Assembly (NCBI GenBank): GCA_051294375.1
Contig: CM119270.1
Span: 260,713-324,712, forward strand
Direction: 5' to 3'
Source of the DNA: Paraspadella gotoi
Taxonomy: Eukaryota > Animalia > Chaetognatha
DNA length: 64,000 nucleotides
Positions within the stretch are counted from its first letter, which is position 1. Each line of letters starts with the position of its first letter. Of the stretch, positions 4,576-63,249 are shown piece after piece. The notes below the pieces were generated by a model. That model was given only the letters and a program-made list of their open reading frames with translations, had not been told where the DNA came from and made no database searches. The position numbers and the translations under genes are program-made.

Positions 4576-4926
4576 ATCCCAAAAGGCTCAAAACAAAGCG
4601 ACGTCGCCGTCGCTCCGTATGGAACGGTCCGCCTCCAAATAATCGCAAATTTATTCGACGCAGAGAGAGAGAGGATTGTGGGAGGATAGAGCAGAGAGGA
4701 GAGATGAGTTGAGAAGGAGAGAGAGAGAAGAGTTTATGTTATTCGCAAACCGACGTGTTTGCGCCGTCGGTTCCAGTTCCCTCTATCAATCGGAAGCGAA
4801 ATCAAACAAATGAACTCAAGGAGAAAAACATGGAATTCCCGTGATATTTGCAAATGCCGAGATTCTCTCTCTCTGTCGGAGAGTGCGAGTGTTCTCTCTT
4901 CTCTCCTCTCTCTCTCTTCTCTCTCG

Positions 4927-8700: not shown

Positions 8701-9349
8701 TAGAGCCAAACTCGTCATGGGGTGGGGTCAGAAATTTGATTTTGGGAACTTTCCAAATGAATGTTTGTTCTTCAATACATTTCTGAGAAAACTTTTCATG
8801 GAGCAAGATTTTCTAAAATGGCAAGGAAGCATTAAGTAAATTAATTTTTTAAATATTTAATTTAATAGATAAGATAAATGTCAAAAATTTTTTTTTGATT
8901 TTTTGTATTTTTAAAAAGCAAATTCAATAGCTATGTAAGTTATCTAACACAAAGTATAATTCTTTTTTTCAAAATATTTTGATGATAAGTGTTGTGTTTT
9001 AAAATTGAGAAAAACCTTAAAAAATCATCCATCATCATTCATCATCCACGATGATTTTAGCTAGTTTTTACTAATTTTTAGTAATAAAACATCAAAAAAT
9101 TTTAAAAAGTGTAAATTATATTTTTTGCTTAACTTTTTAAGATCATCAGAATCAATTAAAAAAACTTAAAATAATCCCAAAAAAATTTTTTAACATTATA
9201 TAGCAATAATAATAATATTAATTAGCGAATTACTCATGGTTCAGAACATTTTGCAAAAAAATTATTTAACGACAATAATTAATACCAAATTAATGGATTA
9301 ATGTTAATGCTGTTCCCATTAAAATTTGAAATTTGGTCGGCTACCGCTA
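8701..9349. mobile_element. Second copy of the hAT-like MITE (inside the exact duplicate)
   Basis: Identical to 505-1153. Confidence 0.5.
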
Positions 9350-9470
9350 GTTTTAAAGTTTGGGGTTAATGGACTTCGTTTGCGATTTAAGGTGAAGAGA
9401 ATGTAGGTTATGGATAAAAGGTTTAAAGGGTTCAGGGGGTGGCTGTGGGTAACCCTCCCGGTGGCTGTGG

Positions 9471-11376: not shown

Positions 11377-11851
11377 AGTTTTTGGGTTAAAACCAAAAAA
11401 ATTTTTATATAGTATTGAAGTAAGAAGATCATTTATCATGTATTTTAGTTAAATAATAAGATTGGAAGATGAAAATAAATTGGAGCCGCTATTTACAAAA
11501 TATTGCAATAGTTTGAGAGAGAGCAGAGACAGAGAGAAGAGAGAAAAGAGAGAGAGAAAGAAGGGAGAAGAGAGAGATAGAGAGAAGCGCCGCATCCGAT
11601 TAAAGCGGGTAACACTTTATAAACTTTTTAACATTGCAAGTATGTATTAAAAAAATGATCTTATTCCTGATATAATCAATTGATTTATAATAAATCTTTT
11701 TCCAACTCGACAGAATTCGTAATATCCCCAAAAAGGCCTCAGAAACAAAGCGAACCGGTCGCGCGTCGTTGGCTATGGCAAACGTCCCCTCCACAAATGC
11801 ATAAATGCTTTAATTACGAGAAACCGAGAGAGAGGAGAGGAGAGAGAGAGA

Positions 11852-11912
<61 letters not shown>

Positions 11913-18024: not shown

Positions 18025-18205
18025 GTAAAACACCCGCTTATGAACCATGTTACAACGGGTTAAGCGCCTCGTACTCTTAATCTGTTTAGCAAGCCAACCG
18101 TGCCTAGAACCCCGGAACCTTTTGGATGGGAGGCCGAAATGACACTTGCATCCGGCACCAAATCGCCGCTGATGAAAATGGTTGGTGGATTTTAGTCAAC
18201 CATAA
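18025..18205 (-). mobile_element. Family B repeat, degenerate copy
   Basis: CCATGTTACAACGGGTTAAGCGCC...GGTTGGTGGATTTTAGTCAACCATA. Confidence 0.7.
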
Positions 18206-18341
18206 TATCCCCAAAAGGCCAGAAACAGAAAGCGACCGTCCGCGCTCGGTTCTATGGCAACGTCCGCCTCCGACACAATGCCATAAATGCTTAATTAACG
18301 ACCGCGAGAGAGAAGAGAGAGAGAGAGAGGAGAGAGCAGAG

Positions 18342-20340: not shown

Positions 20341-23151
20341 TATACCAAAAACACATAAGATATGACAAGTTAATCTGGTCGTTTATAATGTTATTTTAAA
20401 AAATATTTTACATTTAACTGATAGGAAATGATGTCAATATTGTTGAATGTAACATTTCAAATTCAATCGACCCCACAGCCGGTTGAAAATAATCAACAAA
20501 AAAAATGGTCATTTTCCACGCCCAATTTTTAAACAAATCTGCGTCGTTTAAATCTTTTCTTTTTGGTCCACTTAAATTTTTACTTTTGCCGAGTGACTTC
20601 ATTGGTATAAAAAAATTGATTTTCTTTGATATCTTTGAACCAAAAATGATAGAAACGATGAGACTGGTATCAATATTACAACCATAATTAATGGGGCATC
20701 TTTTCCATATAATTTTTTCTCAAAATATTTCGCAACGTGATTTTCTTAAAAAATCTGGATCGAAATCTTAGTCAAAAAGTATAACAACTTTTAAAATTAA
20801 ATTAAACACACCTTTGCTGTATTAAAAAAATAATGAATATAGATTCTGAAAGAGAACAAATTTGAATTATGTTTCTGATTATAACAAAAATTTTCTATAC
20901 CTGCAAATGTTTATATAAATTACTAAGGAAAATGAATTATCATTTTGTTGAAAACCAAAAATAAAAATTCATGAAGGAACTTAAAAAACATATGATTTAA
21001 ATAATGAAAATTTAGGAGTTTCAACTTTGTTCCGCGATTTAAAAACCTACTGACATAGGGCTAAAAGGCCTATAAAAATTAATCAGATTTTTAAATTTTT
21101 GTCCAATCTTCAGGTTGCAAATTAAAACCTTTGCCATAATGCCCATTAGCTATATTAATATAACTATTTTTTATTAAAAAAAGCATAAAACAATCTTTTT
21201 TAATAACACGCCAAAGCATGTAGCTGTATGTAAAATTGTTGTTTTTTTAATTTTTTTATTATTATACAAGGCTTTATCAAAATAAAGGGGTAATTGCAAA
21301 GAAAATAGTTATTTCAGGCTCCAATATTGATAACTATGATATCAATGAATTTCTTTGTTCCCGGCAAAGAAATGTACCTAAGACATTGTAAGTTCATTAG
21401 CTTAATCTTTTATTTTATAATTTTAAAAGGGCAATGTTTGGCAAAAACAGTAAGAAAACAAAAATGACAAAAATTTTTGGAGAAAAATTTGGATTAATTT
21501 GCTATTAATTTCTTACTATGTCGTCAATTTTTTTTTCGTTAATGTGCTTTGAAAGTTAGGCTAAAACCCAACAAAATCGCGAATCATGCATGAACCGCTG
21601 TATATTTAATTGATTTATACAGTAAGATACCGCAATAAAAAAAAATTTAAAAAAGAATTCAGACCAAGCGTCGTGTTATTTTCAGTATTTTTTTTTAGTC
21701 AAGACCTTAATGGATTTTCTTTGTTCCGGCGGCGTTGGATAGCCCAACACTGCAGTTTCAGAAATCATCCATGGTTTTGTAAATATTTACTGCGCTAAAC
21801 TGGTGGCAAAAAATTGGCTAGGAACCAAATTATCAAAACCGCTTCGTTCTTTCGGATTTTTTTTTAACGCGGAGCGTCATATCTAAAAACAGTATTGACA
21901 AAAATCAAAAACAGTAATTCAGTGTAAAACTAGAACCAGCAGTAACAAGTAAAACTAAAACTATTAAAATTCAACAAAAAAAAGACACTAACAGTTTAAA
22001 ATTGACTCATAAATAAAATGTTATGAAACTAATTCATAAGACTATAAAAATATAACGTTCAAGGAAACGCTTCCAAATTTCAAATTTTTAAAACAAAAAA
22101 ACATCAAAAACAAAGACACAAACGTTTAAATGGACTCAAGACAAACAAAAACAAAACACAAAAATATAAAGCAAAACGAAAAACAACGTTAATAAAAGTA
22201 ATAAACAAAAAAAAATTAATAAAAAAAAAAAAAAGAAACAAAAAGAAAAAATATAAGCATAAATGAAAATATACCTAAAATGTATAATTATAATGTGTTA
22301 AAAGTAAAGGGCAAAACTAGATTTTTTAAAATAATTTTAATAAATCGTAAAACCGGAAAAGTAAAAAAGTGTTTAAAGTAAAAAACAAAAAAATGTCTAG
22401 TATAAAAAGTGTATAATGCGAAAATGTAATAAACGAAAAACGTAAAACGTCATGGTTTTTATTTTTAAAAGCCGTCATTATAAGTATTTACATGCTTAGT
22501 GTATAACATATACCCAAAAATTTATAATTACAAATGTGTTAAAGTAAAGGGCAGAGGGACCACAACGCTATTAATAGAAATAAAAAACTACAATCAATAT
22601 ATATATATATATATACACACATACACATATTTTTAAATAATAATCAACAGAAAGACAACTAATAAAACAAAGACGCTAAAAACAGAAAGACACTAATAAA
22701 AACAAAAGACCTAAAAACATAAAGACACTAATAAAAACAAAAGACGCTATAAAACGCTATAAAAACGCTAATAAAACAGAAAATAAAACAAAAACAAAAG
22801 ACGCTAATTAAAACAAAGAGACGCTAAAAACAAAATGAGAACGCTAATAAATACTCAAACCTATATTAATAATACAAACAGACGCTAATAAACAAAGATA
22901 TAGATATGTGGTCCCATCAATACCTGAATAAGCCAAATACCCAATACGAAGATACCCTCATTGATTAATAAGTTCCCAATAGCCAATTTTAACCTCCGTT
23001 TAATTAAGTTTCCCCACTCTACAGTCCCATTCTGGTGGTGCCCTATCACCAACAGATAAATTAAAGGCTGTTGCTTTCGCATGCGCCTCGGTGGCTCAGT
23101 GGAACTAATGCACCAATCCCAATGTGCGTCCCTGTTCGAGCCCTGAGGTTG

Positions 23152-23234
23152 TCATAGTAAGAAAGTGGATGGACCGGGTAACCGCCTGTAGGCATGGGCC
23201 TACTTTGCCAGATCCAAAAGCTCTGACTACATGA
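23152..23234 (+). ncRNA. Putative P5-type twister ribozyme (family C, copy 1)
   Basis: P5 TCAT(a)GTA(a)G/CTACATGA; GA-TGGA (T1'); TAA cleavage motif; GC (T2); P3 GTAGGC/GCCTAC; P4 CAGA/TCTG; L4 TCCA-(A)AAGC. Confidence 0.65.
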
Positions 23235-23613
23235 ACATGCTGTCTCGCTGTCGCCAACGAGGTGGACACCGCTGCACGGGTGTGGCGCCCTGTAACCTCC
23301 TCCTTTCAATGGTGAGCCCGACTGATCCCGAACACGCACCCGGCATGATATACTCCTCTGCCTTGATGTGGGTTTGAAGCACACAGCCTGCCACTCAACG
23401 CAAAGGCCACCAGCAATGAAGAGAAGGTTCACGAAGAGACATGCGCTTCCATCCCCTGCTTCGTAACTCTCATATGCGAGAGTCCTGGGGCGGCTGTCTG
23501 GTGTCCCTATCACCAACAGATTAAATTAAAAGTGTTGCTTCGCAGCGCGCTCGGTGGCTCAGTGGGACTAATGCACCAATCCCAATGTGCGTCCCTGGTT
23601 CGAGCCCTGAGTG

Positions 23614-23693
23614 TCATGTAGAAAGTGGGATGGGACCGGTAACCCGCTGTAGGCATGGCCTAATGCCAAGATCCAAAGCTCTGGACTACATGA
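23614..23693 (+). ncRNA. Putative P5-type twister ribozyme (family C, copy 2)
   Basis: Perfect P5 TCATGTAG/CTACATGA; TAA-CCC-GC; P3 TAGGC/GCCTA; L4 TCCAAAGC; P4' TCTGG. A few 1-bp indels relative to copy 1. Confidence 0.65.
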
Positions 23694-25236
23694 ACATATA
23701 GCTGTCTCGCTGTCGCACGAGGTGACAACCCGCTCGGGTGTGGCGCCCTGTAAAACCAAGCCCCTCTTCACCACATCATTTAATGTGTTCCAACCTAAAG
23801 TCGCCTATATTTTACAATTAATCTCTTTCATTTGTTAAGTGCGCCGCGAGTTAGAGCACTCTATAGTCGTCGTCGGTCGAAATGTCAACAAGAAACAAAA
23901 TAGCGCTAAAACCTTTGTTTAAAAAAGAAAATATGAATAGAATAAAAGATCGAATTTGGATGCAGTATTATCAATTAATTCATTAGCGCTACCTTTTGTT
24001 TTAAAAAGAAATATGAATAGAATAAAAGATCGAATTTGGAAATGCAGTATTATTCAATTATTCAATTAGCGCTACCTTTTGTTTTAAAAAGAAAATATGA
24101 AATAGAATAAAAGATCGAAATTTTGGATGCAGTATTATTCTCGTTTTCACCACAAAAATAAAATGTGAAAGGAATCCTCGTAAGTTTAGCAAATATGCAA
24201 ATATGCAAATGAGTTTTTAAAATGAGGCTCGTAAAAACAAATGAACACTTAATTTCAACCTTTTGCGCGAGTCTGGTCGGCATTTTGAAAGTCCCTGAAT
24301 TTCTCTCGTTTCTTCCAAAATCGTCGTCGTTTTTGTAATTTGGAAAAGGATAAGATTTCTCATGACTGACCGAGCCACCGATAATGGTAGGGGCGGTAAG
24401 TGTGGTCGCCATAGCTTCGGCCGCATTGCCTATTGTGACAAAAAAATGAACAAAAAGGAAATGTAAATATTTAAAGTCCATTGAATATTTATTTTTAATT
24501 TTTTTTTTTAAAATTTTAATATTCAAAGATTCAACTTTGATTAAAACTACGCGAAAGTTTTGAATGAAAGCGATTTATTACAGTAATGAGTCTCTGAATA
24601 AATAAATAATTATTAATCAATTAATCGATTATCTTTGTTTGTAAAAAATTTACCGTATGTTTGTCTAGGGAATTTCCGAAACGCCAAGAGTTTTGAAAGA
24701 CTAAATTTATTAATTCCTTGCCGTGCTGCTGCTCTCTCTCTCTTCTTCTCTCTCTCTCTCAGTTCTCTCTCTCTCTCTCCTCTCTCTCTTTCTCTCTCTC
24801 TTCTCTCTCTCTCTTCTCTTCTTCTCTCTTCTCATCCTCTCTCTCTCGTCTCCTTCTCTCTCTCTCGCATGAAATTCGCGTTGTTGCGTTGGAAACAAGA
24901 AGGCTGGAAACCCGGAACTAGAAATGAAAAGGAAAGGAAAGAAAGGAAATGAAGAGAAAAGGAAAGAGGAAAAACGGAAGGGAACAAAGAAAAAAGAGGC
25001 GAAGAAAGGAAGATAAAGAAAAGAAGAATGTTTATTATATTATTATAATATATATTATATTAATTCATTTAACAATTAATCAAACTGAAAAAAACCAAGC
25101 AAAACAAATAACGTTTATATTGTTTTATTTTCTCTTCAATCTGAGTATCGAGTTTTCTCGCCAAACTCCTCGACCTCTAAAAAGGTCATACTCTCTCTCT
25201 CTCTCTTCCTCTTTCTCTCTCTTTCTCTCTCTTCTC

Positions 25237-35816: not shown

Positions 35817-35817
<1 letters not shown>

Positions 35818-37937: not shown

Positions 37938-38010
<73 letters not shown>

Positions 38011-41000
38011 AAGGAGCGAGAAAGAATATTGAATTAAATTCATTTCTCATATTTCTAGAAATACCGATAAAAAACATTTCTAATAAAAACGATACCAACC
38101 GACAACGAAAAAAATAACAAAAACACTTTGACACAAAATCGCTAAAACAACAGAAACGACAACAACAACAAACTCCACCACAACCATCTGCAATGACAAC
38201 GCCACCAACTGATACCCAAATCCTCTTCCCCCTCCCTACTTCTCACCCGGAATGGGTCCGAAATGATCCTTGGCCACGACTGTGCATTCCTTCGTTCTTC
38301 CTGCTGTCGCCATTCCTCTTCCCCAATCCCGGCTGCAGGACCGCGTCCGCGACGGAGCAGCGGCCTTTCTCTTCGACGCTGTTAGAGCTGCAGAGCCGCG
38401 GACGACGCTGGCTGCGTCGTTGCGGCAGGAAGGACAGAACCAATCAGAGTCGAGATCGTTGTCAGCGGCGGCGGTCGGTGATGGCTGATGTGAAAAAATG
38501 ATAATACAAATCATAGTAATATTTATGTATTTTTTAAACAAAGTTGAAAATTTAATGGAACACTCTTTTTTTTTAACTTTTCCCTGTAGATAAGGCGCTG
38601 AATGGGCTGAAAATACTTTTGTACCCACTCTGAGTGGGCTACTCAGTAGCAATAGAATGGCTGGTAGGCTTGTTTTCCAGGCCCCCAAAGTAGCTTACGG
38701 CCGTCCTCTAATCCTAAACATTATCCTTTAATCCTAAACATTATCCTCTAATCTCTAAACATTATCCTCTAATCTTTAAACATTATCCTCTAATCCTAAA
38801 CCTTATCCTCTAATCCTAAACCTTATGCTCTAATCCTAAACTTTATCCTATAATCCAAAACATTATCCTCTAATTCAAAACCTTATTCTCTAATCCTAAA
38901 CATTATCCTCTAATCCTAATCAATTTCCTCTAATCCTAAACATTATCTTCTAATCCTAAACCTTTTCCTTTAATCCCTAAACATCATCCTTTAATCCTCA
39001 ATTCGAATTCTTAACCTAACCCAATTTGATCTCATCTTTAAAATTAAAAAAATTAATTCAAAGCTGAATTGGGGCAGTTATGGAAAGTATGACCCTTAAG
39101 AGCATTACAGAAGATTTTAGAAACTCAAAAGATGGAATCAAATGGAACCGGATGGAATCAGATCATAGACTCGGAGAGAAATCACCGAAAATGGAATCGA
39201 GCTCTCTGATTGGTCAAGAGCCAGATAGAACCGGCCAATAGGCGGATGGGCTTTGTTCAACCTCGAAATTCTATTCACGTCTCTGATCCACTTGTATTGT
39301 ATAAATTGAATTGGTTTTTGTACTTGATCATTCTGTCCAAAAAATTGACACCGTCTTCATGTCTCTTTTCTCTAAATAATTTCCACTTTGGATTCATGTT
39401 GAAATCCCTATCTTCTTACTTAAATGTGGTGGCAGCGGTGGAATTCGAACCCACGCCTCCAAAGAGACTGAAATCCCAGTCTTCTAACTTAAATGTGGTG
39501 GCAGCGGTGGGATTCGAACCCACGCCTCCGAAGAGACTGAAATCCCTGTCTTTTTACTTAAATGTGGTGGCAGCGGTGGAATTCAAACCCACGCCTCCGA
39601 AGAGACTGAAATCCCTGTCTTTTTACTTAAATGTGGTGGCAGAAGTCAGATTCGAACCCACGACTCCAAAGAGACTGAAATCCCAGTCTTCTAACTTAAA
39701 TGTGGTGGCAGCGGTGGGATTCGAACCCACGCCTCCGGAGAGAATGATCCTTTTATAAAAGAGAAACGATTCCTTTAAAAACATTATCAAGCTCAATTGA
39801 AAGAAAAGCCAGATACTCTGAGACTGTGAGAGAATCTTGATTGCAGAGTCTTGCCATGTTATCTTGTATGAGGGACGTGGGCCATTCATAGCCTGACCAA
39901 ATGTATTAATTGAATATTGTTTGTATCAATTTCGTTGTCGTTTGTATAGAAATCGAAACGAAAAAACGAAAATTAGTCTGATAAATTAATTTAAGTCAAG
40001 ATGTTTTCTCATGATATATTTTTTATATATTAATTTCGAAGTGATATATTTATTATATATTAATTTCGAAGTGATATATTTTTATATATTAATTTCGAAG
40101 TGATATATTTTTTATATATTAATTTCGAAGTGATATATTCTGTTTCCGAAACCCATTGTCATAAAATTTCAGTCGGAAAATATATTATTCCGGTAATAAA
40201 AAAATTAGAAAATCGGTAATAACGAGATTCGATTTAATTTTCTTTTTTCGCCAAAATTTGAGACAAAAAAAATGGGAAAAACGAGATAAAATCGTTGGAA
40301 CCAAAATGTTTACGTTAAATCGAACACGAAATCAATTTCAAGTGTCTGAGTGATGTCTTTCTGTCTGTTCGTCCATCCGTCTGTCAGTCATTTACGTTTA
40401 GATCTGGATATGTTGCGCGTTGGTTTGAAAATAATCGGAATTTTAAATTAATTGAAATATGACTTAACGCAATAAAATTATATATTTTCAATCTCCCTGT
40501 CTTAATCTGAAAATACTTTTAAAAAAGAGTTATATAAATTGTAACAATGTCATACACCATTAGAACTGTAATATTTTGACTTAATTTCTGATTGGAATAA
40601 AATTGTTTACACAGAGAATAAACGATTGGGATAAGATAATTTTGCTTCATAAAATATTCCCAAAAAAATATTATTACACTTTTGAATTAAACCGCGGTTC
40701 CTGTATTTTTAAATTTTACAGATTGATTATCTTTTTTAAATTTTACAGATTGATTATCTTTTTTAAATTTTACAGATTGATTATCTTTTTTAAATTTTAC
40801 ATTACATCTCGATGTGGTGACGAAAATGTTTGGAAAAATAATGGTCCAGTTTACGTTTGTCTCGGTCGCAACTTGCGCCACGTATGCGAACCGAGGTTAG
40901 CGAGAATCGATAAAACATATTTGACTGATTGGTAGATTTATTGGTAGATTGATTGGTAGAATGATTGGTTTATTTTATTAATGATTTTTTTATTCATTCA

Positions 41001-42160
41001 TCTGTTTCATCGATTAAAGGCGTTTTTGTAATCTAATAATATAATAATATAATATAATAATAATAATAATATAATAATAATAATAATCTAATCTAATTCA
41101 TTTAATCAAGTTGATTGTTCGATTGTTAACAACATTACTTAATAAAATTTATTTTTATCCGGGATCAGGGAGACTGCACTCAACTTCCTTTCTTAATCTC
41201 AAAGAAAAAGATCACGAAATAACATTTGTCAATTCGAGAATTAGTTGTGCCAATTATTGCGATAAAATTGAATGTCCTGGCTTCCTTATGGACATTAGTT
41301 TTCCTTATAGGGTAAGAAATAAAATGTAAATTGTTTCTTTTATTAATCAGATTATAAATACACTTTTATCATTCCTAAAATTTTCCTACTATTTTATTAT
41401 AACGCTTTTATTTCTTTTTTATACTTTTTTCAATAAATTAAAGAAAAAATATTATTAATTTATTATTATGATAAATTAATACAGCCTATAAAAATTACAA
41501 TATTTTCTTTTAATCAGGGTTCGCATCGCTATTCAAAATTTTTAAAGTCTGCGGCTTTTGGCTCAGAAAAAATTCGCTGTGTGATTTTGAAAAATCAAAC
41601 AATTGTTGATGAAATTTTGAAATCAATCGAAAAAACCGGACGTCATTTAATCTTTACTCCAGGTTATAGTTTAAAACTTAAAATATGCAATATTGGAGTT
41701 TCGAACACTTAACCTAGCATCCACGAGCTAATGCCCAGCCGATGTCGCCACTTTGGCATTCAGTTTTCCTACATTTAGAAACTTATATATTAATTTATAT
41801 AACTGTCACTTCTTGATCTTTTGTTATTACCAATGAAGGTATAATTTTAATTGGTTGTTACCAATTTCATATCACATCTATGATTACAAAAAGTAGTATT
41901 CAATTTGTTACGAATTCAAACTTATGCTATCATTTTCTTCTTTTAATTATCCATCCATGTATTTATCCCTCCATCCATCCATATATCCTTCAATCCATCT
42001 AACTGTCCCTAAAAATATCCATCAATCAATCTATCTGTACATCTAACAATCCATCCATCAATACAGCGGCTTGTGGATTCAAATTTTTCTCTGAATCAAT
42101 GATGAGCGCTTTTCCATTGAACAAATTTGGATCAGAAAAAATCGTAAAGGAAGGTGGGCG

Positions 42161-42223
<63 letters not shown>

Positions 42224-42284
42224 GTAAAGAGAGCTAAAAAGAGAGAGAGGTGTAAGAGAGAGAGAGAGAGAGGTGTAAAGAAAA

Positions 42285-42354
<70 letters not shown>

Positions 42355-45300
42355 CAGATAGAGAGAAAGATAGTGAAGTAATTTTCAATCGTCTTTTCGT
42401 TTTTTCAGATTTGTTCAAAAATCCCCAAATGTTCTTCTCCGGTCGAGACTTTCCCTCTGACAGTCCCATGGACCATCCTTTCGGCAGTCCCCATGGCAGT
42501 CCCCAAGGCAGTCCCCATGGCAGACCCTACGGCAGACTCCATGTCAGACCCCAAGGCATTCTCAAAGGCAAAGGCAAGCCCATCGACGTGACTTCTCTCC
42601 TGGAATCAATATCTTCACAAGGAATAATTGAATTCACCATCGATGCGAAAATTACCTTCGAGGAAAAAGGAATGAATGGTGAGAGAGAGATATCTCAACG
42701 TTGTGAGTTGCTCACGATGTCACTTTATGAGTCACTTTTTGGTCGGTCCGTCGGTCCATCAGTCAGGCCCTTATGTTTTAATAATTTAAATAGTTTAAAA
42801 CTCGGGTAATACCACATTATTTAATAGATTGTAGTTAAATAATGTAACCAGTGCAAGTTTAATAGTATTTGCTCCGTCACCTGATTCTCTGATAAAAAGG
42901 TTATATAATGGAAAATATAATGTGGCATAATTCATATGAATACTGAATATTTTAGGATAACACTTAAAATAAATATTGGGAATCAATAAACACCATAAAA
43001 ATATTTACTACATGGTAACATGATTAAAGATTAATACAGCTGTTTTGTATAACATTTGATTATTATAATCAATATGTTTTATAATTGTAGAGTCAAGTAA
43101 TTGTGTTCAAATGCATCTTCCAAAGAAAATCACTGTAGCGCTACATTCTTTTTTTTTATCACAAGCGTGAGGTCTTTCGTCAAAATCGCCAAATAATTCA
43201 TGAGCTTAATTACCAGGTCTGGGATTTATGCTGAATATTTCTCCGGCATTGCAAATCGGCTTTGAAATAAAAAGTCAACAAATACGAATCTATGTAAAAA
43301 AACTACATGAAATAACCATTAATGATTGTTTATTACCTGGGCGACTTAATAGCAAATCTGAACTTGGACTTACTCTGGCTTGGAAAAGGGGTTTATGCAA
43401 CGTCTTCATTGATGGAAATAAAATGGGACCCAATTTACAATCTGGCAAAGGTATGTGGATAGGGCGCTAAGTGGGCTGAAGACTCCTATCCGTAACTTCT
43501 GTGCCACCTCAGCAGCCATGAAACGGGACCTGGGCTTGGAACCAGGCTTGAGAGTTATCCAGGACCCCAAAGCTTCCCCAACGCTTCCCGCAGGGTAGAT
43601 ACCGGGTTGGGATTGAACTCGGTACCAGGTGGTCATGAGCTGAGGGCTTTACTCAATGAGCCACTGGGTCGTAAATGGTCTGCTAGGTCTTAAGAGTCTG
43701 CTTAAAAGTCTTAGGAGTCTTCTTAAAGGTCGGCGTTATATTCCCAGAATTCCCAATTCCATGTTAAATTCAGAATTAGATTAGGGATTAAGTTAGTGAT
43801 TAGGGTTAACGATTAGGTTAGGCATTATGGTTAAGGATTAGGGTAGCGATTAGGTTAGTGATGACTATCCATAACTTCTATAAACCCCTCTAGCAGCCAT
43901 AGAACGGGTCCTGGGCTTGGAACCAGGCTTGAGGGTTATCCAGGACCCCAAAGCTTCCCCAAGCTTCCCGCAGGGTAGGTACCGGGTTGGGATTGAACCC
44001 GGTAACTGGTGGTCATGAGCTGATGGCTTTACTCAATGAGCCAATGAGCCACAACTGAAAGTGTCATGCTTATAGGCGGGGTGAACCTAGGCAATGCCCG
44101 ACTACAGTGATTAGGATTAAGTATTAGGTTAGTGATTCGGGTTAGGAATTAGTTTAGAGATAATGGTTAGGGATTACGTTAGGGATTAGTATTAGAGACC
44201 AGGGCTTAAGGTTAGACGTTAGTTAACATCGCCCTATCTATAATTACCAATAACAATGATTAATAATTACTTTTAATTATTATTATTAATTAGTATTCAT
44301 TATCTTTATTACCAGTACCAATGATAATGTTTTTTTTTCTTTTAAGGCGAAATTATTCTTCATTCACCATCTCACAACCAAAGTATTTTCATCGGAAGCA
44401 AACCAAATTCACGCATCACATTGAAGAGCCTTCGCGTCTGGAACAAAGCTCTCACGGACGAAGAAGTGAAGGGAGAGAAGACGATTCACAGAAATCACGT
44501 GGTGCTCGATTCACCCGCGACTTATCACTACGACATTCAGGGAGGAATGGAGCAAATTAATTGTCATTCGTGAGGGAAAAAATAATTAAATATCAAAAAA
44601 TCTCTAATGATTAATTTCATAGAGAAGAAAATAATAATCTTTGAATTTGATTACAGATCTATGGATTCAAACTAATACTAAATATTAATCCTTTAAAATG
44701 AATAAAATTTAAAAAAAATAATACTAAAAGGCAACAACGATTTTTTTTTTGTTACACTTGTCAAAAAACACTTATGGAGAACATTTTCAAAAATGTAATA
44801 CTGTCGCACGCTTTTTTACATATTTGTACTACTTATTTAATATTTATACTAATTTTCTAATCACAAGTTTTGTTGTATTGTAGTGGCCACACTGAAAAAA
44901 ATATTGAGAATTGACATCAATGGGGCGCGAACCAATTGTTCCTTCGTGAGAAGAGAGAATGCTCCAATTTAAACCACAGTATAATAAATACTCGTCACTT
45001 CTACAGCTACGTTTCTCAAATCACTAATTAAATAAATTTTTATATTGGTTGTACCAATTTCTTAAATTAAAAAATATTATAACCATAAACTCCGGCTCTT
45101 CACCTTCAAAGCCGACCCCTTTTTACCACCTTTTAAAACCACCCAATCCACTTTCGACCCCCACCCAACATTCGACAGAACACCTTTCTAAACCATCTTT
45201 CGTCTCTAAATTACTTTCGACCAGTGTTAGATCCAAAGACTCGCGAATCGTGATATCTGAGTTCGAACTTTACTTCGTCACAAGGATTTATCGTTTGGAT

Positions 45301-46373
45301 CATTTCGTCATTCGTGCTTTGGTTTATTCATTGGTTTTTGAGTTTATACTGATTTTTGTCATTCTTTTGAGTGTTTAAATAATAATTTTGATAATTATTC
45401 TTTATTGTACTGTTTGGAATATCTATATGCTTTGATTATTTTATTAAGGTACCCTTTTTAAAGAAATAAAGAGACTTTTTGATCGTCGATCCGCTCAAGC
45501 AACCAAATCATGCCTTTGAAGAATCACTGGACTACCGAAGCATCTCGCCGGGGTTGAGGAGTTTCCTCAAATATTCTTCGAATATTCTCGGGGGCGTTTT
45601 AGGAGGAGGACGGACCGGCGGGTCCTAACACCAGCGGGACGGGTCCTGGACTTGGAACCAGGTTTGATAGTTTTCTTCGCCCCCAAAGCGATTTACGAAC
45701 ATCTACACGCTTTCTCCAGGAGTAGGTACCATTGGGGATGGATCGATCGATCCCGGTACCTGATGGTCATGAGCTGATGATATTACTAAATGAGCCACAG
45801 GGTCACGACTGAAGGTTGCATACTTATAGACAGGGTGAACATTAGCGCGGAGTATAAATACAAAACATGAAAAATCTAACTTCGAGCCCTCTTGATTTTT
45901 TGACTTGGATATAAACTTATTACCTAGGGTATAAAAAACTAAAATTCCATCGCCCAGTTTTCCCGTCCTAGCCAGTTTATAATAGGACCGAAAGTCAAAA
46001 AATGCAAAAAAATTAACAATATATGAAATTAAAGATGTCAGTTTTAATTAATATTTTTTCATATATTATTGCTAAAATTAAAGTAATATTGACAGATTTT
46101 ATGATTTAAAACATAAAATATTGATATTATAAATTTTTTAAATTCTATAAATTATGAATTATTCTATCCAGAAACCGCAAAATTGAGCAAAATGGGAAAA
46201 ATTGGCGCCCCTAANNNNNNNNNNATAATCCGCGCTAGTGAACATATTGCGATGCAGAAGAGACAACAATTAATTATAAATCTCTCTCTCTCTCTCTCTC
46301 TGCCCCTTACCCCCGGGCACATCCTTTTCTCCAAACAGCTAAAGTGAAACGCATCGTTTCATTCGTCTCCATG

Positions 46374-46412
<39 letters not shown>

Positions 46413-49400
46413 TCCTTACCCCAGGCCGCATCCTTTCCTCCAAACATCTCAAGTGAAACGCATCGTTGCATTCGTCGCACAAAATCTGCTCCTCCTCTTC
46501 CTCCTTTCCTCCGCAGCGTCGGCAGCCGCATTCCCTGCAGCTTCGATCCGCGTCGTCGCCGCAGTAGCCGCATTGAGGCTTCGTGCGGCGGAGACGCGGC
46601 TGAGCGGCGGCGGCGCGGCGACGGCTGCCTGATGCGTCGGCGGAGATTTTGAAAACGTCGTTAGAGATGAAGTCGACGACGCGTTCGTGAAGAGGGGAGA
46701 GAGAGGCGCCGGCGAAGAGAGAGACAATTAACTGGCGACGCCGGTTGTGGAAAAGGACGCCGGTAACGACGCCGTCGTACCAGTAGCCTGGGGGGGAGAG
46801 TGGCAGAGAGGGAGAGTGGGAAGGGTGGAGAGAGAGAGAGAGAGGGATAGAGAGGGAGAGAGAGAGAGAGAGAGGGGGAAGGGAGATTGAAGGAGTTATT
46901 TTAAATTTAATTAATGTTGACATCTCGTAAGGGTAACGTTACATCGTCACTCACTACTATCGGTCATAAATCTTAAAAAATAATTCCGAACAGTAAACTC
47001 ACTAACCTTTACTTTCAAAAGTTGCTTTTACATATTTAGTCCATTTTGAAAGAAAAAATTGAAACCAACCAAATCGCTGAACTTTCCCTCAACCCCCACC
47101 GCCTCTTAAGTCTTAACCACACTCACCCAGCTGCCCTGGTGCCTCCAAATTGTGGTTGACCATCACCGTCTCGCCCAAAACAATATCCTCCACTTTTTTC
47201 ACTCTCTCTCCTTCTCCAACGCGCGGACGAAGCGACGTCGAACTCAATTCGTCTTTAGCGAATTTTCCTTCGTAGCGAATGAGGTAACGAAATCCGTCGA
47301 GGGGATATTTCGGGGGCTGGAAGAGGTCGTGGAGACAAAGACGGGGCGTGGAAGAGGGGGAGAGGGGATGGATGGAGTTGGTGGTAAATGATTGGATTGG
47401 ATGGAGGTCAGAAGAGTTTGTTGGAAGAGTGTGAGAGAGATCCTTGGGATTGATGTTGTTATTGTTTTCTTTTTTGATGTTGTTATTGTTTTCTTTTTTG
47501 TTGTTTCCATTGCAATTGTGATCAACGAAAGACTCCATCTTGTTTTTGGCAGAATCTGCGATGGAACCGACCCATGAACTTTGACCAAAATCTTCGGAAC
47601 AGCGACCAATCAGTGAATCCGTTTTCATAGACGAACGAAGCAGAATGTCGTCTGATTGGTGGCTCGAACTCACGATTTGATTGATTGATTGATTGCTCGT
47701 CGCGTCGTCAAAGTTATCCTGAGTTTCGTCGACGGAGTTATTGGCCGAATCTCTGCAAAGAGGAAGAGGCGACGACCGTGGAGTTTTAAAATCGTCGTCG
47801 TCTTCGTTGTCGTCGTCCTCCTCTTTTTCTTCCTCCTCTTCCTCTTCCTCATGCCGTGGCGTCGACGCCGGCGTCCGATACTGTAAAGGGGTATCAACGC
47901 CTTCCGGAGTATCGTCCGTGATCATCGGATGCTGCGAAGAACCTCCGATGCTGTCGGGAGCTAAAGAATGCTGTAGAGAAGTATCGATGCCGCTTGGATG
48001 CTGTATTGAGGTATCCCTGACGATCTCTTCCACAACCGCCTCCCACCAACCGCCGGTCACGGGGTCACGTGCGTCCACCAAATCGCCCACCTTGAAGAGT
48101 GGTTGCGCAAGGTGGTTGGAAGAGGTGGTTGACTTAAAGTTGAAGGTGGTCAATTTATCTTTTACTTTGGGTGATCGATTGTCATATAACGAATTTGATA
48201 GAAGAGTGGATTGATTACCAGGGTATTGATTGTCCGTGCTTTCCTTCTGATTGTCAGTGTAGAGGAAATGATTGTCTGTGCTTTCCTTCTTTTCGTCAGT
48301 TATCGACGAATGCTTGGTAGTTGTAGCGAAATGGTTTTTGTTTTTTTCTGGTTGAGTTACGAGATCTGAGGAATGATTGTCTTCTTTGTCTGATTGCTTG
48401 GTCTTGTCGAAGTTGGTCGATTGCTTGTCAAGACTATTGAGACCGAGTGGTCCGAGTTCTTCGGTGCTTGGTCGACTGCTTGTTCTACGCGATGCTTGCT
48501 CCTCCGATTGCGTCGGGGATTCTGAAACCGAAATTCCAGAGTCGAAATCTTCGTCGTGGATCGAATTTAATTTTCGTCTTTTCGTCGCGAATTCGTCGTA
48601 GATTTCGTCGTCCGAACTTCGCCGCGACTTCGACTTTTCGCCGTAGATTTCGCCGTCGATCTTCGTCGTATTTTCTTCGGATTTTCGTCGTATTTTCTTC
48701 GCGATTTCGTCCAATAATTCGTCTCTTTCGACGACGACGTGGCAGGGCTGAGATTTTTAAAAAAGGGACAAACTATTGAAAATATTTAAAATTAAAATAA
48801 AAATATTAATTTTTTAAAGTCTATTAGCATTACAAATTGACCTGATTAATACAAAATTAAAAAAAGAAAAACACATTTTTTTTCGTTCATAATGTACAAT
48901 CACGAAAATCAGGATTATAACTAAGACGTCGTTTATTAAAATAAAGTCAGTTTGTAAAACGTTTAATTTATTTAATAACTCTATCTAATTTATGATTAGC
49001 TAACAAATCTTTTATCCCTTTTACCTTGGTTTGAATTCTCGGTTGATTTGATTCTCCCCCTTCGACGAAAACCTGAGATCGACAAAAGAAATAATTAATT
49101 AATATAAATAGTATCAATCAAAAGTGCAATGACTAATATTCAAAAATGAGTATGTACGTAAATTCCATAAATAACACAATAGAAAATTATTCACGATTAA
49201 TCTTCTTCTATTGTGAAAAATAAAAATAAAATTAAAACATAAACAACAACAACAACACATGAAGAAAAAACGCAAACTAATACAAAAACAACATATACAA
49301 ATATACAAATAAACAATAACTACATCATAAACCAGAACGACAATTAAAACAAAAACAATGTAAACAACAAATATTCTAACCACATACAAACAACAACATA

Positions 49401-49921
49401 AAAATCACAAACAACAACATCAATAACGTAAACAACATCTATTGATATACACTTCATCAACAATGTAAACAACAACATAGCAAAAACAACCACATAAACA
49501 ACGTGATTAAATGAGACTGTGAGAGAGTATTGATTGAAAGCTTGCAGGGATCTGCTATGTCAGTATTTTTTAAGAGTGATGGAGGCCTTAAACCACCAAA
49601 GTCTCTCCAAAGTCAGGGGCAAGATAGCTTATTTATTAATAATGGATAATTTTTATTTTGTTCTACCAATTCCATAAACATAAGCAACAACAACAACAAC
49701 AACGTCCCAACCTGTACGACGCTATTGATTCCCACATCGAAATGAAACAGCGCCATCTCGTCCACGAGTCTTTCCCGCGAAAGAAGAGACGTTGACGCTC
49801 TGACCACGCCCAGGCCACGCCCCCTCGACGCGCGACTTGAGCGACGCCACGGACGTACGGCGGAGACGCCGTCGATACGGACAGTGAGGCGTCCGTCCAT
49901 CGTGCGTACGCGAAGCCACAT
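35817..49921 (-). CDS. UHRF1: E3 ubiquitin ligase UHRF1 (UBL-TTD-PHD-SRA-RING), 9 exons
   Basis: Exons 49712-49921, 49025-49072, 47127-48747, 46420-46787, 38247-38484, 37570-37777, 37206-37394, 36851-37037, 35817-36188; all GT-AG and phase-compatible. Motifs: [116 protein letters not shown]. Exon 1 has internal frameshifts. Confidence 0.96.
36295..36415 (+). mobile_element. Family D short interspersed repeat (copies 49505-49625 -, 39800-39905 -, fragment ~55737-55770 +)
   Basis: Shared GCCCCTGA(C/T)TT(T/G)GG...CTTTGGTGGTTTAAGGCCTCCATCACTCT...CAATCAA(G/T)ACTCTCTCACAGTCTCA. Confidence 0.7.
38588..38712 (-). mobile_element. Family A fragment retaining the GA-GGAC-GGCCG-TAA core
   Basis: Minus strand reads GAGGACGGCCGTAAGCTACTTTGGGGGCCTGGAAAAC...TTCAGCCCATTCAGCGCCTTATC. 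Confidence 0.65.
38705..39000. repeat. 20-bp minisatellite (TAATCCTAAACATTATCCTC)n
   Basis: About 14 copies, read directly. Confidence 0.95.
39400..39745 (-). repeat. 5 x 69-bp tandem array of tRNA-Leu 3' halves ending in CCA
   Basis: The minus-strand unit contains CAGTCTCTTCGGAGGCGTGGGTTCGAATCCCACCGCTGCCA+CCA, i.e. the variable arm, T arm and acceptor 3' strand of eukaryotic tRNA-Leu (NAG). No 5' half is present. Confidence 0.85.
41169..44573 (+). CDS. Nested antisense gene in UHRF1 intron 4 with a C-terminal LamG/pentraxin (ConA-like) domain; 5' end unresolved
   Basis: Phase-compatible GT-AG exons 41169-41311, 41518-41662, 42067-42153, 42409-42678, 43217-43450, 44347-44573 (TGA); AATAAA at 44701. 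C-terminal [34 protein letters not shown] is typical of LamG/pentraxin folds. Confidence 0.75.
43458..44106 (-). mobile_element. Family A head-to-tail dimer (copies 43458-43675 and 43865-44106)
   Basis: GGGCTTGGAACCAGG recurs 381 bp apart. tRNA-like A box TGGCTCATTGAG and B box GGTTCAATCCC, then P5 GCGGG/CCCGT, P3, P4 CCTGG-TTCCAAGC-CCAGG. The TAA core is deleted. Confidence 0.85.
45625..45845 (-). mobile_element. Family A repeat
   Basis: Minus strand reads ...AAGCGTGTAGATGTTCGTAAATCGCTTTGGGGG...CCTGGTTCCAAGTCCAGGACCCGT. Confidence 0.8.
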
Positions 49922-50021
49922 CGTTGGTTGTTGCGTTGAAAGGCGGTGCTCGTTAAGTGGATTCCTTTTGATGGATGGATGGATGGATGGATGGATAGAT
50001 AGAAGAAACAGATAGATAGAT

Positions 50022-50260
50022 AGTATGGTGGACTAAAATCCACCAACCGTTCATTAGCGGCCATTGGCCGGAGGCAAGTCATTCGCCTCCCAACCCAAAG
50101 GTCCGGGGTTTCTAGCCTGGTGGTCGCCTAGCAGTTAAGAGGGACGGGGCGCTTAACCCGCCTGTAACATGGTGTTACAGCCTGATCCGAAGCTCAGGGA
50201 CTGCTTATATAGAACGGTTCTGTCATTAACAAATATCAATAATTACTGTCTCTTCAATAG
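50022..50260 (+). mobile_element. Family B, best-preserved copy: terminal hairpin + tRNA-Gly-like head + twister
   Basis: Hairpin GGTGGACTAAAATCCACC; tRNA-like 50057-50127 (acceptor GCGGCCA/TGGTCGC, TTCGCCTCCCA, GGTTTCTAGCC); twister 50130-50205; enclosing stem AACCGTTC (50045)/GAACGGTT (50212). The same ends occur in the copies at 58.2 and 59.2 kb. Confidence 0.85.
50130..50205 (+). ncRNA. Putative intact P5-type twister ribozyme
   Basis: P5 AGCAGT/ACTGCT; P2' GAGG; conserved GA 50143-44; T1' CGGG; TAA (predicted cut 50154|50155); P2 CCC; T2 GC; P3 TGTAACA/TGTTACA; P4 CCTGA/TCAGG; L4 TCCG-AA-GC. P1 is minimal or absent. Confidence 0.8.
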
Positions 50261-51842: not shown

Positions 51843-52954
51843 TTATCTGACTCCTGAGTCACTGAGATCCCCGTTAATTCCCGAGTTGTTGTTGTTGTTG
51901 TTGTTGTTGTCGCCGTCGTCGGGGGCTAAGTTGTTGTTGTTGTTGTTGTTGTCGTTGTTGTTATCGCCGTCGTCGGGGGCTAAGTTGTTGTTGTTGTTGT
52001 TATTATTCTGTTCTAAATTATCCGGAGTTCTTCTTTCTTCCGGAGTTTTAAATCCGTTGGGCAGAGGACTTGATCCTGGGGAAAAAAGGCGGAGAAAGTT
52101 TTAAATGGAATGAAAAAGTGAGACAAAGTGAGGCTTTTTAAGTTTTGGATCCGTTTTTGCGACAATTAAGAACTGGCACGAAGTATGCTAGTAAAATAAA
52201 CAAAGTCCGCTGTGGTTAATTACGCTCACTGATACAGTTGATAGCCCTCCAGTCAATAATGATTCTAATGCACGAGTCCCTTTTTTTAAAAGGCAAAGAG
52301 ATATTTCGTATTCAAGTAGTTTTATCTCTAAAAGAAATGACGCCAGGTTCTAGCCTTGGCCAGAACGGTCCTTGCCAGGTTCTAGCCCTGGTCAGCGCGG
52401 CCCTTGCCAGGTTCTAGCCCTGGTCAGCGCGGTCCTTGCGCAGAAGTGTCGGGCCGGTTAAACCAGCAGTAGCAAGCCCGATTAGGGAAGCAGGGCCCAC
52501 TGGTCGCTTCAAGAGTGGGAGCGAGCAATGAACACTTGGAAGGGAACTTGGCTTCCTGCTTTACATTCTCGGTCACTGAGGCCGCCTTATTTCCCTGTTA
52601 CCATCTTAAACGCTAAAAACGCCACTAAAGAACGCCATTAAAAATGCCCCTGAAGATCGCCATTAAGAACGCCACTAAAGAACGCCATTAAAAATGCCCC
52701 TGAAGATCGCCATTAAGAACGCCACTAAAGAACGCCTCTCTCTTCGCTCACCATCTTCGGCGCTAAAGGGCGCCGGTGTGTTCCCTCTCGGCGTTGTCGA
52801 CGGCGTCACTTCTTCATTATAAAGTGGACTGTTGACCTCGACGTCCCAGAGCGGCGCCAAACCTGGAGTCTCGTAGACATCGTCGGCGTTGTCCATGGAG
52901 AGAGAGTTCACAGGTTCCATCTAAAGAAGTTATTGGGTTAATAGAGGGATGAAG

Positions 52955-57379: not shown

Positions 57380-57635
57380 ACAACCTGGGCTGAAGAATGC
57401 TTTCCGCAACTTTTTTAACACCTCGCAGCCATGTAACGATTCTTGGGCTTGGAAACAGGCAAGAGGGTTTCCCAGGGCCGCAAGGGGGTCTACGGCCGTC
57501 CTCACGCTTCCCGCCGGTTATTTACCATTAGGGGATCGATCCCGGTACCTGATGGTATTACTCAAAGAGCCACCGGGTCACGACTGAAGGTTACATGCTT
57601 ATAGGCGAGATGAACATATTGAAATTCCCGACTAT
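57380..57635 (-). mobile_element. Family A repeat with a degenerate twister (57436-57514)
   Basis: Minus strand reads GCGGG AA GCGT GA GGAC GGCCG TAG...G CCTGT TTCCAAGC CCAAG A ATCGT. Confidence 0.8.
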
Positions 57636-58221: not shown

Positions 58222-58425
58222 TATTGAAGAGACAGTAATTATTGTTATGTGTTAGTGACAGAACCGTTCAATTTAAGCAGTACCAGGCGGGTTAAGCGCC
58301 CCGTCCCTCTTAACTGCTCGGCGACCACTGGGCTAGAACCCTGGACCTTTGGGTTGGGAGGCGAATGACTTGCCTCCGGCACCAATGGCCGCTGACCAAC
58401 GGTTGGTGGATTTTTATCCACCATA
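58222..58425 (-). mobile_element. Family B copy with P3/P4 deleted
   Basis: TAAGCAGTACCAGGCGGGTTAAGCGCCCCGTCCCTCTTAACTGCT...GGTTGGTGGATTTTTATCCACCATA. Confidence 0.85.
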
Positions 58426-59228: not shown

Positions 59229-59445
59229 CTATTGAAGAGACAATAATAATTGTTAAGAGTTAGTGACAAAATCGTTTAACATAAACAGGGCTTCGGATCA
59301 CCCTGCAACACAGTGTTGCAGGCGGGTTAAGCGCCCCGTCCCTCTTCACCGGACTAGATCCCCGGACCTTTTGGTTGGGAGGCGAATGACTTGCCTCCTG
59401 CACCAATTAACGATTATGAACGGTTGGTGGATTTTAGTCCACCAT
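59229..59445 (-). mobile_element. Family B copy with a compensatory P3 change
   Basis: P3 reads TGCAACA/TGTTGCA versus TGTAACA/TGTTACA at 50163; L4 TCCGAAGC is retained; P4 and P5 are damaged. Confidence 0.85.
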
Positions 59446-60107
59446 ACCATAGAAGATGGAATCGGAACCAAAAACGATCAGTATTTATACCATTAAGTTT
59501 ATTTTTTTGTTATTATGCTATTAATCTAGTTATTTGGTTGATAATTTAGTTGATAGTTAGTTTATAGTTTACAGTTAGTTTAATTTAGTTTAATATTTTA
59601 GTTTATTGGCTGAGTTATTTTATTCGTATATTAAATTTCTTCCATAAATTAGTTGATCTGATTGGTGAATCTGGTCGATCCATTCAGTTCACTTATAAAT
59701 AGTTGTTATTATTTATAAATATGTTAGCCATTCTAGTATAATTATGTTACATCGGTTTTTTCTGTAAGTCAATACTAGTATATAGGCAGTAACAAGTTTT
59801 GCTAAGTTCGTTCGTCTTGATCGTTTCGATTATTTTATTTTTATTTGTTGAATGTATTAAATAGTAAGTATTAATTAAATATTTCAGGGTCCCGTTTCGA
59901 TTCTTTTATTTTTTAAAATTTTTTCTAGTTTTCGTCACCAATGAGTCCTTCATTAGAGAGAGCAAAAATTCGTAACGATTCTGTAGTAGAGAATTTGTAA
60001 CGAGAACAGAGAAATAAAAGAACCTGAATTTCGAGAGGGAGCAAAAAGGGGAGAGAGAGAGACAGAGATAATTGAATTAAGGCGATTGAAGAATAAAAGC
60101 AGCGCGT

Positions 60108-61487: not shown

Positions 61488-63249
61488 AATTTAATCAGAT
61501 TTTATTTAGATCAGTTTCTCAGTTACTTTTGAATTTGACACGGTATTCAGTGCAGTGCACAGCAACCATCGAGAGGAAAAGGGACCTAATTTCCAAAAGT
61601 GTCCAATTTCTGTTTCAAATTTAAAAACTAATCGTAATTTTTTTTTTTTTTAAAGTTTAATCCAATCATTAACCTTAATCTCTGACCTTAACCTATCTTT
61701 AATTCTAATCTTTATTCATTAATACAAATCTTTAACTAAAATTAACTAATTAACCCTAATCATTACCAATATTCTTTACTTTAGCCTGTCTTATAATCGA
61801 TATTTTAATTTGAATTTAAGCTGAAAAGGGGTCCTTTTGGAAAAGAAGGCAATTTAATTACCGTTCAATTACGTCATTATGTTATACTGGATAAATATAT
61901 ACTATCTGACTGTTTACTATTAAACGGTTACTTTCAGATGAAATTGAGTCTAATTTGCCGTTTATAAATTGTAAGATGTCAAATGTCAAGTTGCAATAAT
62001 TAAATGTCAAATAAGAAAATACAACTTGAACAGGATCGTAAAATCATTCAAAGTTAAATATATTACGTTATTTGAATTAAATCTAGTTAATATTTTTTAA
62101 TGAAGTTTCTTACATTTGAATTTAAAAAAATAATTAGAAAGATTTGTATTTGGGATATGAAATAATATTTTGAAAAGTTTGAAATTAGATTCGACAACGA
62201 TTTTATTTTTTACATAGAAAAAACCGGACATGTTTCGGCTTTCAGTGCAAATTTGTTTTTTTTATATAAAATTAGAATTGGAATTATTTAATCAACGTAT
62301 CGACACCGCCGCCGTTGCAGCTGTTACTTATCATGACCTTTAATTGTCACTTCGAAATGTAGTAGTAAGGGCCTTTTTATTTTAGCTTGGGGCGTTTTCT
62401 TTTTGTTTTTTATTACTAATCTCATTTATGTTTCTTATGTCGCTTTCAACTTAAAACTCCTTCAAAATCTTTTGTTTATGAAGTTTCTGATACTCGACGT
62501 CAGTTGTCGCTTCATTTCGAGGAATTAAAAAAAGGCAAACATTTTCTTCAACTTTAAAAAGTATAGATATTCGGCCTTTATAACTCACTTTATAAATGAG
62601 TAAGAAAGATAAAAATCCTCTGAAGGTGAGGCTTGCCTAAGTGCCTTACCATTTATCTCGTCTCGTCATAGGACGTAGCTGATGCTGCGTCTGAATCGGC
62701 TGCGGATGCAGGGGCGAGCAGAGTTAGTCTGGGACGAAAGAAGCGCGAATTGACGGAAGCAGCTAAAACCCGGTCCGACATTTCATTAGGAAATTGAAAG
62801 AAGAATAATGAAAGAAAAAGAAATTTTGAATGAATTTAACATTCATAATTAGTATTAACCAAGCGCTCGTATTACACTTGTATAATAAAGTATTTTTGAC
62901 ATTACTAACTCTTGTACGTCATTTTGGCATTTTGCTCAAGAATAGAAAAAGACTTAGCATTAACATTATCGAGCATCCTCTTTTCCTACCCAATGGTTTC
63001 GGGTTCGCGCCCCATTAGTGTCAATGTTACTAATCGGGTTTGAACTTTTAACCTGCCTGTAGTTGAGGATTACAGTTCTGCAGTTATTGGCCGCTGTTCG
63101 TCCAGTAAGGAGCTATACATTTTAAGTAATAAGGTAAATCAAAGGTAATGCAGTAATTCATACTTTACTTTATTTTATATCACAACTGAATTATTCAAAA
63201 TAAAAGAGGCAATAATTACAAGGAGTCCTGTTACGTGACAAGGGGAGCC

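Follow-up and report, generated by a model that had tools for sequence, protein, structure and literature searches.

The window, by which we mean the whole 64-kb stretch of DNA analysed here, carries on its reverse strand a gene at 35817-49921 (start at about 49921) which we take, from a motif at its start, to be UHRF1-like, and along which lie tandem tudor (47.1-48.8 kb), PHD (46.3-46.9 kb) and RING (35.8-36.2 kb) domains; such a gene points to a eukaryotic and probably animal host. Roughly 100 bp upstream of the gene's start codon lies a 233-base repeat (50024..50256, forward strand), here called family A, which holds a compact twister-type motif in P5 order with P3 and P5 (50130..50205, forward strand), a P1 of at most 1 bp and a bulged P2 of 3 bp. 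Since the element is antisense to the gene and upstream of its start codon, it would not cut the UHRF1-like pre-mRNA. Elsewhere in the window are an exon of a major facilitator superfamily transporter (27387-28049, reverse strand) and, at 39400-39770, a 69-bp tandem repeat with weak, sub-threshold matches to the tmRNA model that are probably spurious.

Read 5' to 3' on the forward strand, sequence and parse give P5 (AGCAGT, 50130-35), P2' (GAGG, 50139-42), a GA dinucleotide (50143..50144), T1' (CGGG, 50145-48), a 5-nt linker (50149-53), UAA (50154..50156), P2 (CCC, 50157-59), T2 (GC, 50160-61), P3 (50162-80), P4 (50181-85), L4 (TCCGAAGC, 50186-93), P4' (50194-98) and P5' (50200-05), and every part of the P5-permuted twister named in the original prediction was found where it had been placed. 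G50143, whose position agrees with the Rfam Twister-P5 consensus, is the predicted general base, the role being that given in PMC5408937. By analogy, the RNA is predicted to be cut at 50154|50155, with A50155 as the predicted general acid. The T1 strand of L4 pairs with 50145-47 and its GC with 50160-61 (T2). The T1 and T2 pairing claimed earlier holds as well: all pairs of the two pseudoknots (3 bp in T1, 2 bp in T2) can form, together with an L4 of the form N4-AA-GC closed by P4, and they show compensatory changes between families. Nothing is missing from the two pseudoknots, the catalytic G and A, the second A or the adenines of L4 in this copy, which follows the family A majority throughout the motif and has no frequent indel in contigs of three runs; UAA at the cut site and the opposing GA are present in family A and also in families B and D, described below.

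In its order (P2'-GA-T1'-P1-UAA-P2-GC-P4-L4), its catalytic G and A, both pseudoknots and an L4 ending in AAGC, the motif is like the type-P5 twister RF02684. It differs in a P1 of at most 1 bp (about 8 in RF02684), a P2 of 3 bp plus a bulge (4 bp in RF02684), a full P3, a closed P5 and a eukaryotic repeat context, and it goes undetected by the model. The short P1 and bulged P2, already noted in the original prediction as deviations, are real and represent a family state common to the other families rather than decay of the 50-kb copy: in 8/8 parsed copies a 3-nt P2 strand faces a 4-nt strand with a bulge, and the P1 hairpin is replaced by a 5-nt linker, with a single pair possible in families A, C and D and none in B. 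In phage twisters, P1 opens with a pair between N-2 and the fourth base downstream of GA, so T1 of family A is better read as 3 bp and its P1 as one G.U pair with a 4-nt closing loop. The motif is predicted to work like a twister but lies outside RF02684 by its P1, its P2 and its score.

The similarity to covariance models that the original prediction had led us to expect proved weak. Rfam scans returned no twister at E<=10 in the whole window, in 201 nt or 88 nt around the motif, or in the family B LTR, and the Rfam twister models gave no match to the motif at that level, which leaves it below the gathering threshold. The same models found 10/10 phage control loci: 7/7 P5-order loci matched RF02684 above threshold, and 3/3 P1-order loci matched RF03160 at E<=7e-8, yet below threshold. 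Since these controls are detected, the blank at the motif reflects real departures from the consensus, and it is the P1 of at most one pair and the bulged 3-bp P2 that cause the Rfam models to miss it. When four phage twisters with a P3 were used to build a model, the motif aligned over its full length and in the correct register, but only weakly, ranking fifth of 14 matches (14.1 bits, E 0.14).

The blank Rfam scans, together with a folding z of only -1.61 for the motif region, could be taken to mean that this is a GC-rich repeat resembling a twister by chance. Against this stands a P5-order descriptor, permissive and composed after the motif had been seen, that matched two places in the 64-kb window, the motif itself (50143) and the previously unknown 23629, and had no match in 20,000 element shuffles, in 100 window shuffles, or at 45 phage loci that had been selected by sequence pattern only. 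As a positive control, the same descriptor logic was applied to 233 further phage loci, where it picked out 20 different strings in P5 order and 20 in P1 order. Sequence patterns were also used on their own: the first canonical pattern found 40 phage loci, none of which passed the descriptor; a family-specific pattern had 0 matches in metagenome contigs; variant patterns found 5 and 3 phage loci and 28 metagenome loci, with the complete stem set in none; and none of 31 places where phage or metagenome contigs fit a sequence pattern combines P3, P4 and P5. The shuffle descriptor test and the comparison of four families given below have already largely refuted a chance origin, which we consider extremely improbable. 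The motif is not a chance resemblance, and conserved catalytic positions and covariation across the four families give good support to a P5-order twister-type fold. That 50133-50148 might resemble box A of 5S rRNA was rejected, there being no Rfam 5S match. Among the phage sequences, both twister patterns match at the same place in gut-phage loci L078, L087 and L094 and related ones, and locus L195 carries two P1-order twisters about 560 bp apart.

A model built from the 50-kb and 23.6-kb motifs gave 19 matches at E<=5 and pointed to two further families, C and D. Two unrelated-looking matches, at 63397 (E 0.018) and 63018 (E 0.045), score like family C, so the assignment of C and D rests on the parse of their copies and not on E-values. 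By this parse, family D is a repeat (49505..49677, forward strand) whose twister keeps the layout but lacks P3 and has its T2 changed to AC/GU; a second, damaged copy lies at 36241-36416 on the reverse strand. Family C is a tRNA-like repeat (57400..57634, reverse strand) whose twister has the same arrangement but is degenerate, and its other copies, near 13.2, 31.8, 43.5, 43.9, 45.7 and 61.4 kb, are all damaged or truncated. The layout common to the eight parsed copies runs from a 4-nt P2' with its second base bulged through GA, four bases and a linker (5 nt in 8/8) to UAA, a 3-nt P2, the two T2 bases, either P3 or a short junction, P4 and an L4 of 8 nt, and the 3-nt P2 strand is the majority state in family B contigs too.

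Pairing was compared by a script that tabulated one copy, the best, from each of the four families, and in this set 23/24 of the P2, T1 and T2 pairs are kept. Several of them differ in identity between families: P2 pair 1 is C-G/C-G/A-U/A-U, the inner T1 pair G-C/A-U/A-U/C-G, the outer T1 pair C-G/C-G/C-G/U-A and T2 pair 1 G-C/G-C/A-U/broken, where the change from G-C to A-U is that of family D. The bulged P2' base is A/U/A/C, and the putative first P1 pair is G.U in A, A-U in D and C-G in C, and is absent in B. The commonest T1 changes among contigs lie on CpG sites and are not countable as covariation. The compensatory changes between families in P2, T1 and T2 show that a twister-type fold has been conserved over four repeat families. 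P3 of A and B resembles P3 of the Rfam twister-P1 consensus, and family D has a CAAAG junction, as in phage twisters L266 and L306. Two other places recall parts of this layout. At 63000-63090 (forward strand) a B-box-like stretch precedes TAA and, three bases further on, GC and a hairpin resembling P3, which may make this a decayed fifth relative. At 52346-52520 (forward strand) an ARAGORN tRNA-Pyl call (52353-52431), probably not a real tRNA, coincides with a tandem repeat of a B-box hairpin like that of family A and is followed by a degenerate twister-like 5' half with no recognisable L4.

Whether a motif of this kind can cut depends on how far the core tolerates its reduced helices, and the published work points both ways. 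Wild-type activity without P1 has been reported (PMC5408937), and a screen of >2,600 natural type-P1 twisters, with P5-order forms outside it, found defects in P1 and P2 well tolerated and changes to pseudoknots or catalytic positions not tolerated (PMC11662667). On the other side, cleavage without P1 has been termed inefficient (PMC8501958), and the same review that reports P1-less activity relays a suggestion that altering the length of P2 in any way could perturb the active site (PMC5408937). In the predicted fold of the 50-kb copy, P5, P3 and P4 have pair probabilities of 0.97, 0.83 and 0.99. A pseudoknot-free fold of the family A copy contains a rival hairpin of 50145-48 with 50157-60 at a probability of 0.82-0.99, with P2 at 0; this hairpin would block T1 and P2, and family B has a similar one.

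A twister-derived fold that no longer cleaves, and that persists because its structure acts as a signal (for packaging or RNA stability) or because it travels as a passenger in recently amplified repeats, would fit the dominance of this competing hairpin in the predicted fold and the mostly broken state of the copies in the window. It would also fit the joint alteration of two consensus helices, given that phage P5-order twisters keep a P1 hairpin of 14-34 nt in 20/20 cases and a 4-nt P2 strand in 19/20. Such a relic should not, however, have kept its catalytic G and A, its second A and both pseudoknots in four divergent families while the pairs covary, and the competing, bulge-free register, which holds 4/5 pairs in A and 5/5 in B, fails in C and D (2/5 in each). 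We therefore regard loss of cleavage as unlikely and think it likely, by analogy with known twisters, that the family A motif would cleave itself in vitro at the predicted site, 50154|50155. A natural 3-nt P2 strand is found in one phage P5-type twister (L294:84-141, forward strand), which has a normal P1 and scores 49.5 bits.

The element that carries the motif is bounded by a pile-up of family A contig ends at 50024 and 50256/57, beyond which flanks are diverse (agreement about 0.4), and this defines a probable solo LTR with termini TA...CA. The family is dispersed and high in copy number, with 13,362 contig pieces in run X5 (depth not being equal to copy number) and five copies in the window. 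A candidate 4-bp target duplication, ATAG (50020..50023 and 50257-50260, forward strand), is weak, lying within a GATA microsatellite; over four loci such duplications match at 4/4 (this one), 3/4, 3/4 and 2/4 positions and are clean in 1/4 loci. A terminal 7-bp hairpin (50026..50045, forward strand) has a counterpart in the TGGTG...CACCA hairpin at the start of the family B LTR. The tRNA-like region, a putative internal Pol III promoter (50057..50128, forward strand), begins 33 nt inside the element and scores 14.5 bits (E 1.8) with the Rfam tRNA model, below its gathering score of 29; its A and B boxes are accordingly weak, those of family B canonical. The description of a tRNA-headed repeat in the original prediction survives only as far as the presence of this weak tRNA-like region, since the element starts 33 nt upstream of it and is more likely an LTR than a SINE.

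The other family A copies in the window all lie on the reverse strand. Comparison and parse of the copy at 59233..59446 (59.3 kb) confirm the compensatory T-A to C-G change in P3 to which the original prediction had drawn attention, with P4 and P5 pairing lost in the same copy. By comparison, the copy at 58225..58425 has lost P3, P4 and L4 in a deletion of about 33-38 nt, and those at 18044..18209 and about 4445-4578 are 3'-truncated and degenerate. The 58- and 59-kb copies were considered as the LTR pair of one element and rejected, since the stretch separating them holds neither a PBS nor a purine tract. Family A was seen only as solo copies, in the window and in contig-count tables that under-represent a shared internal region, and never as a full-length element with these two features; in a second organism only the family A 3' end was matched, by 2 contigs.

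The 23629 match of the descriptor led to family B, a complete element at 23031-23770 (forward strand) with two LTRs, a PBS, a non-coding interior and a purine tract. Its 3' LTR (23495..23770, TG...CA) has canonical A and B boxes at 23555-23606, followed by a twister of the same layout as in family A (23614..23693, predicted cut 23640|23641), found blind by the descriptor and then parsed. LTR comparison places the 5' LTR, with tRNA-like region and twister, at 23031..23308, so that a predicted self-cleaving motif sits in both LTRs. The two LTRs align with 249 matches, 11 mismatches and 34 gap columns, and the 5' LTR, its twister included, has many indels in the assembly at which short-read contigs carry other letters. 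The assembly is indel-prone in this part of the window, as the family B contigs show; segmental duplications (1-3712 with 8164-11908, and 3.7-25 kb) of 75-98% identity with many indels are also found here. Between the LTRs, comparison gives a non-coding interior of 186 nt (23309..23494) that ends in a short G-rich purine tract before TG, and an antisense frame overlapping it has no Pfam match. The PBS (23310..23326) is complementary to tRNA-Trp and matches 16/18 positions of the Trp site in Fig. S2 of PMC10886601, or 17/18 in contigs with one extra base; all these features lie on the forward strand. In run X4 the junction of LTR end and PBS has a depth of 2287 and that of purine tract and LTR start 2222, against about 10-50 for single-locus contigs. 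With its LTR pair, PBS, PPT and short non-coding interior, family B matches the structural definition of Helenus / TRIMp3.

LTR identity between A and B is only 0.57 (shuffles 0.50, maximum 0.53), and the two have in common the terminal hairpin, the order from tRNA-like region to twister and the end CTCTTCA. These shared features bear on the idea that family A is a tRNA-derived SINE which took its twister from an RTE-kind LINE, with only family B being an LTR element. The tRNA-like 5' part, the mostly monomeric, dispersed copies and a P3 resembling the Schistosoma type would be in keeping with such an origin, as would the known twisters at the 5' end of Perere-3 (PMC8501958) and in RTE elements (PMC7761336, which mentions unpublished truncated ones). 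But a tRNA-derived SINE has its 5' end at the tRNA-like head and carries a poly(A) or tandem-repeat tail, and family A starts 33 nt before the tRNA-like part and ends sharply at CA with no tail of either kind; both of its termini and its layout are held in common with the B LTR; and a cut in mid-element would destroy a linear SINE template. A SINE origin is in our judgement distinctly unlikely, and family A is probably the LTR of a miniature LTR retrotransposon.

Combining these observations, we lean towards a reading in which the 50-kb motif, predicted to be self-cleaving, lies inside a likely solo LTR, left by a miniature LTR retrotransposon without coding capacity that would replicate as a self-cut, probably circular RNA. 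Pol III would start in the 5' LTR and read through into the 3' LTR, and cuts at both U|A sites would release a monomer, 461 nt in the B copy, without a terminal repeat. As has been argued for plant retrozymes (PMC4918200), a monomer of this kind could not use strand transfer and would need to circularise, after which tRNA-Trp would prime the reverse transcriptase of a Gypsy-type partner. Solo LTRs like the 50-kb copy may arise through LTR-LTR recombination or from short cDNAs, and the competing hairpin might be an off state of the circle or might simply spoil the ribozyme. The predicted 461-nt circle of the indel-rich B copy, 61% of it paired, has no unusual stability when compared with 60 shuffles (z -0.7).

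An active ribozyme could also serve mainly to form 3' ends in place of a Pol III terminator, cutting slowly and often only in the 3' LTR; transcripts would then retain a tRNA-like region at each end, which would serve as an R repeat, and undergo ordinary strand transfer, with no circle. TTTT is absent from both A and B, whereas the examined Helenus LTRs have a T-run after the tRNA-like part, the competing hairpin and missing P1 could slow cleavage, and the B circle is not especially structured, all of which would suit this arrangement. Absence of TTTT is, however, common in shuffles (1019 and 1488 of 2000) and so not significant, and because the two LTR ribozymes are equivalent, selective cutting would need a kinetic bias. 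We hold 3'-end formation as the main role to be fairly improbable and continue to prefer replication through a self-cut RNA.

Understood as such an element, the finding joins three known things: the twister, the tRNA-promoter TRIM and the retrozyme. Plant LTR retrozymes (Cervera et al. 2016, PMC4918200) are alike in their non-coding LTR-PBS-internal-PPT-LTR structure with a self-cleaving motif in each LTR, in solo LTRs, in Gypsy-type priming and in a ribozyme predicted in a blocked fold. They differ in having a type III hammerhead and a tRNA-Met primer where we find a twister and tRNA-Trp; the present element is smaller, has a tRNA-like internal promoter and an animal host, and its circle, not unusually stable, does not match the highly paired monomer RNA of plant retrozymes. 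Rfam scans of the window and the B LTR gave no hammerhead match. Animal retrozymes have been reported without LTR, PBS or PPT (PMC7761336, PMC4918200). Schistosome hammerhead SINEs and animal non-LTR retrozymes share with our element a promoter and self-cleaving motif in a short animal repeat, but carry hammerheads, form tandem arrays, are linked to Penelope-like elements and have no PBS or PPT (PMC6765202; 10.64898/2026.07.22.740005). The twister variants of Schistosoma Perere-3 (PMC8501958) resemble ours in their weak P1, their animal retrotransposon context and a similar P3 and L4, but are P1-type and belong to an autonomous non-LTR element, where they lie at the 5' end, in contrast to the P5 order and mid-LTR position in a non-coding element seen here.

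Also close in structure are Helenus / TRIMp3 elements (Kojima 2024, PMC10886601), TRIMs of similar size with a tRNA-like sequence in each LTR, many solo LTRs, a PBS (Trp in one wasp family) and 4-bp target duplications in animals; here, unlike in Helenus, the tRNA-like part is followed by 130-160 nt with a ribozyme and there is no T-run. The portion of PMC10886601 available makes no mention of a twister, and 7- and 8-mer searches of the part of its sequence file at hand, in which line breaks can hide matches, gave no twister L4 in an LTR setting; an 11-nt match to Ajax LTRs was treated as chance. The available parts of PMC5680766, PMC6765202 and the preprint 10.64898/2026.07.22.740005 contain no twister LTR element, and a literature search with few subscription papers, and with twister-screen supplements, Repbase and Dfam outside its scope, found no published twister-bearing LTR element.

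More tentatively, and with confidence somewhat short of even, we suggest that animals harbour a varied superfamily of LTR retrozymes whose common core is a natural mini-twister. At least four families within this one 64-kb window would share a twister lacking P1, with a 3-bp P2 and invisible to current Rfam models, and at least some of them would add an internal Pol III promoter, a primer site for a tRNA and replication of a circular RNA by the proteins of Gypsy elements. Elements of this sort could be common and have been catalogued as SINEs or as unnamed LTRs. If active, the motif would be a natural twister without P1 and with a shortened P2, bearing on the minimal catalytic core, and would expose a blind spot in ribozyme searches. 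It would further extend LTR retrozymes from plants and hammerheads to an animal and a second ribozyme class, pointing to convergent use of self-cleavage, and would give eukaryotic twisters a concrete role and Pol III-driven LTR elements a way to set their RNA ends.

Within the UHRF1-like gene, all four twister copies on the sense strand (family C at 43.5, 43.9 and 45.7 kb, family D at 36.3 kb) are broken in their core, a hint, in tiny numbers, of selection against cutting the UHRF1-like pre-mRNA. The near-intact family D copy at 49.6 kb is antisense to the gene.
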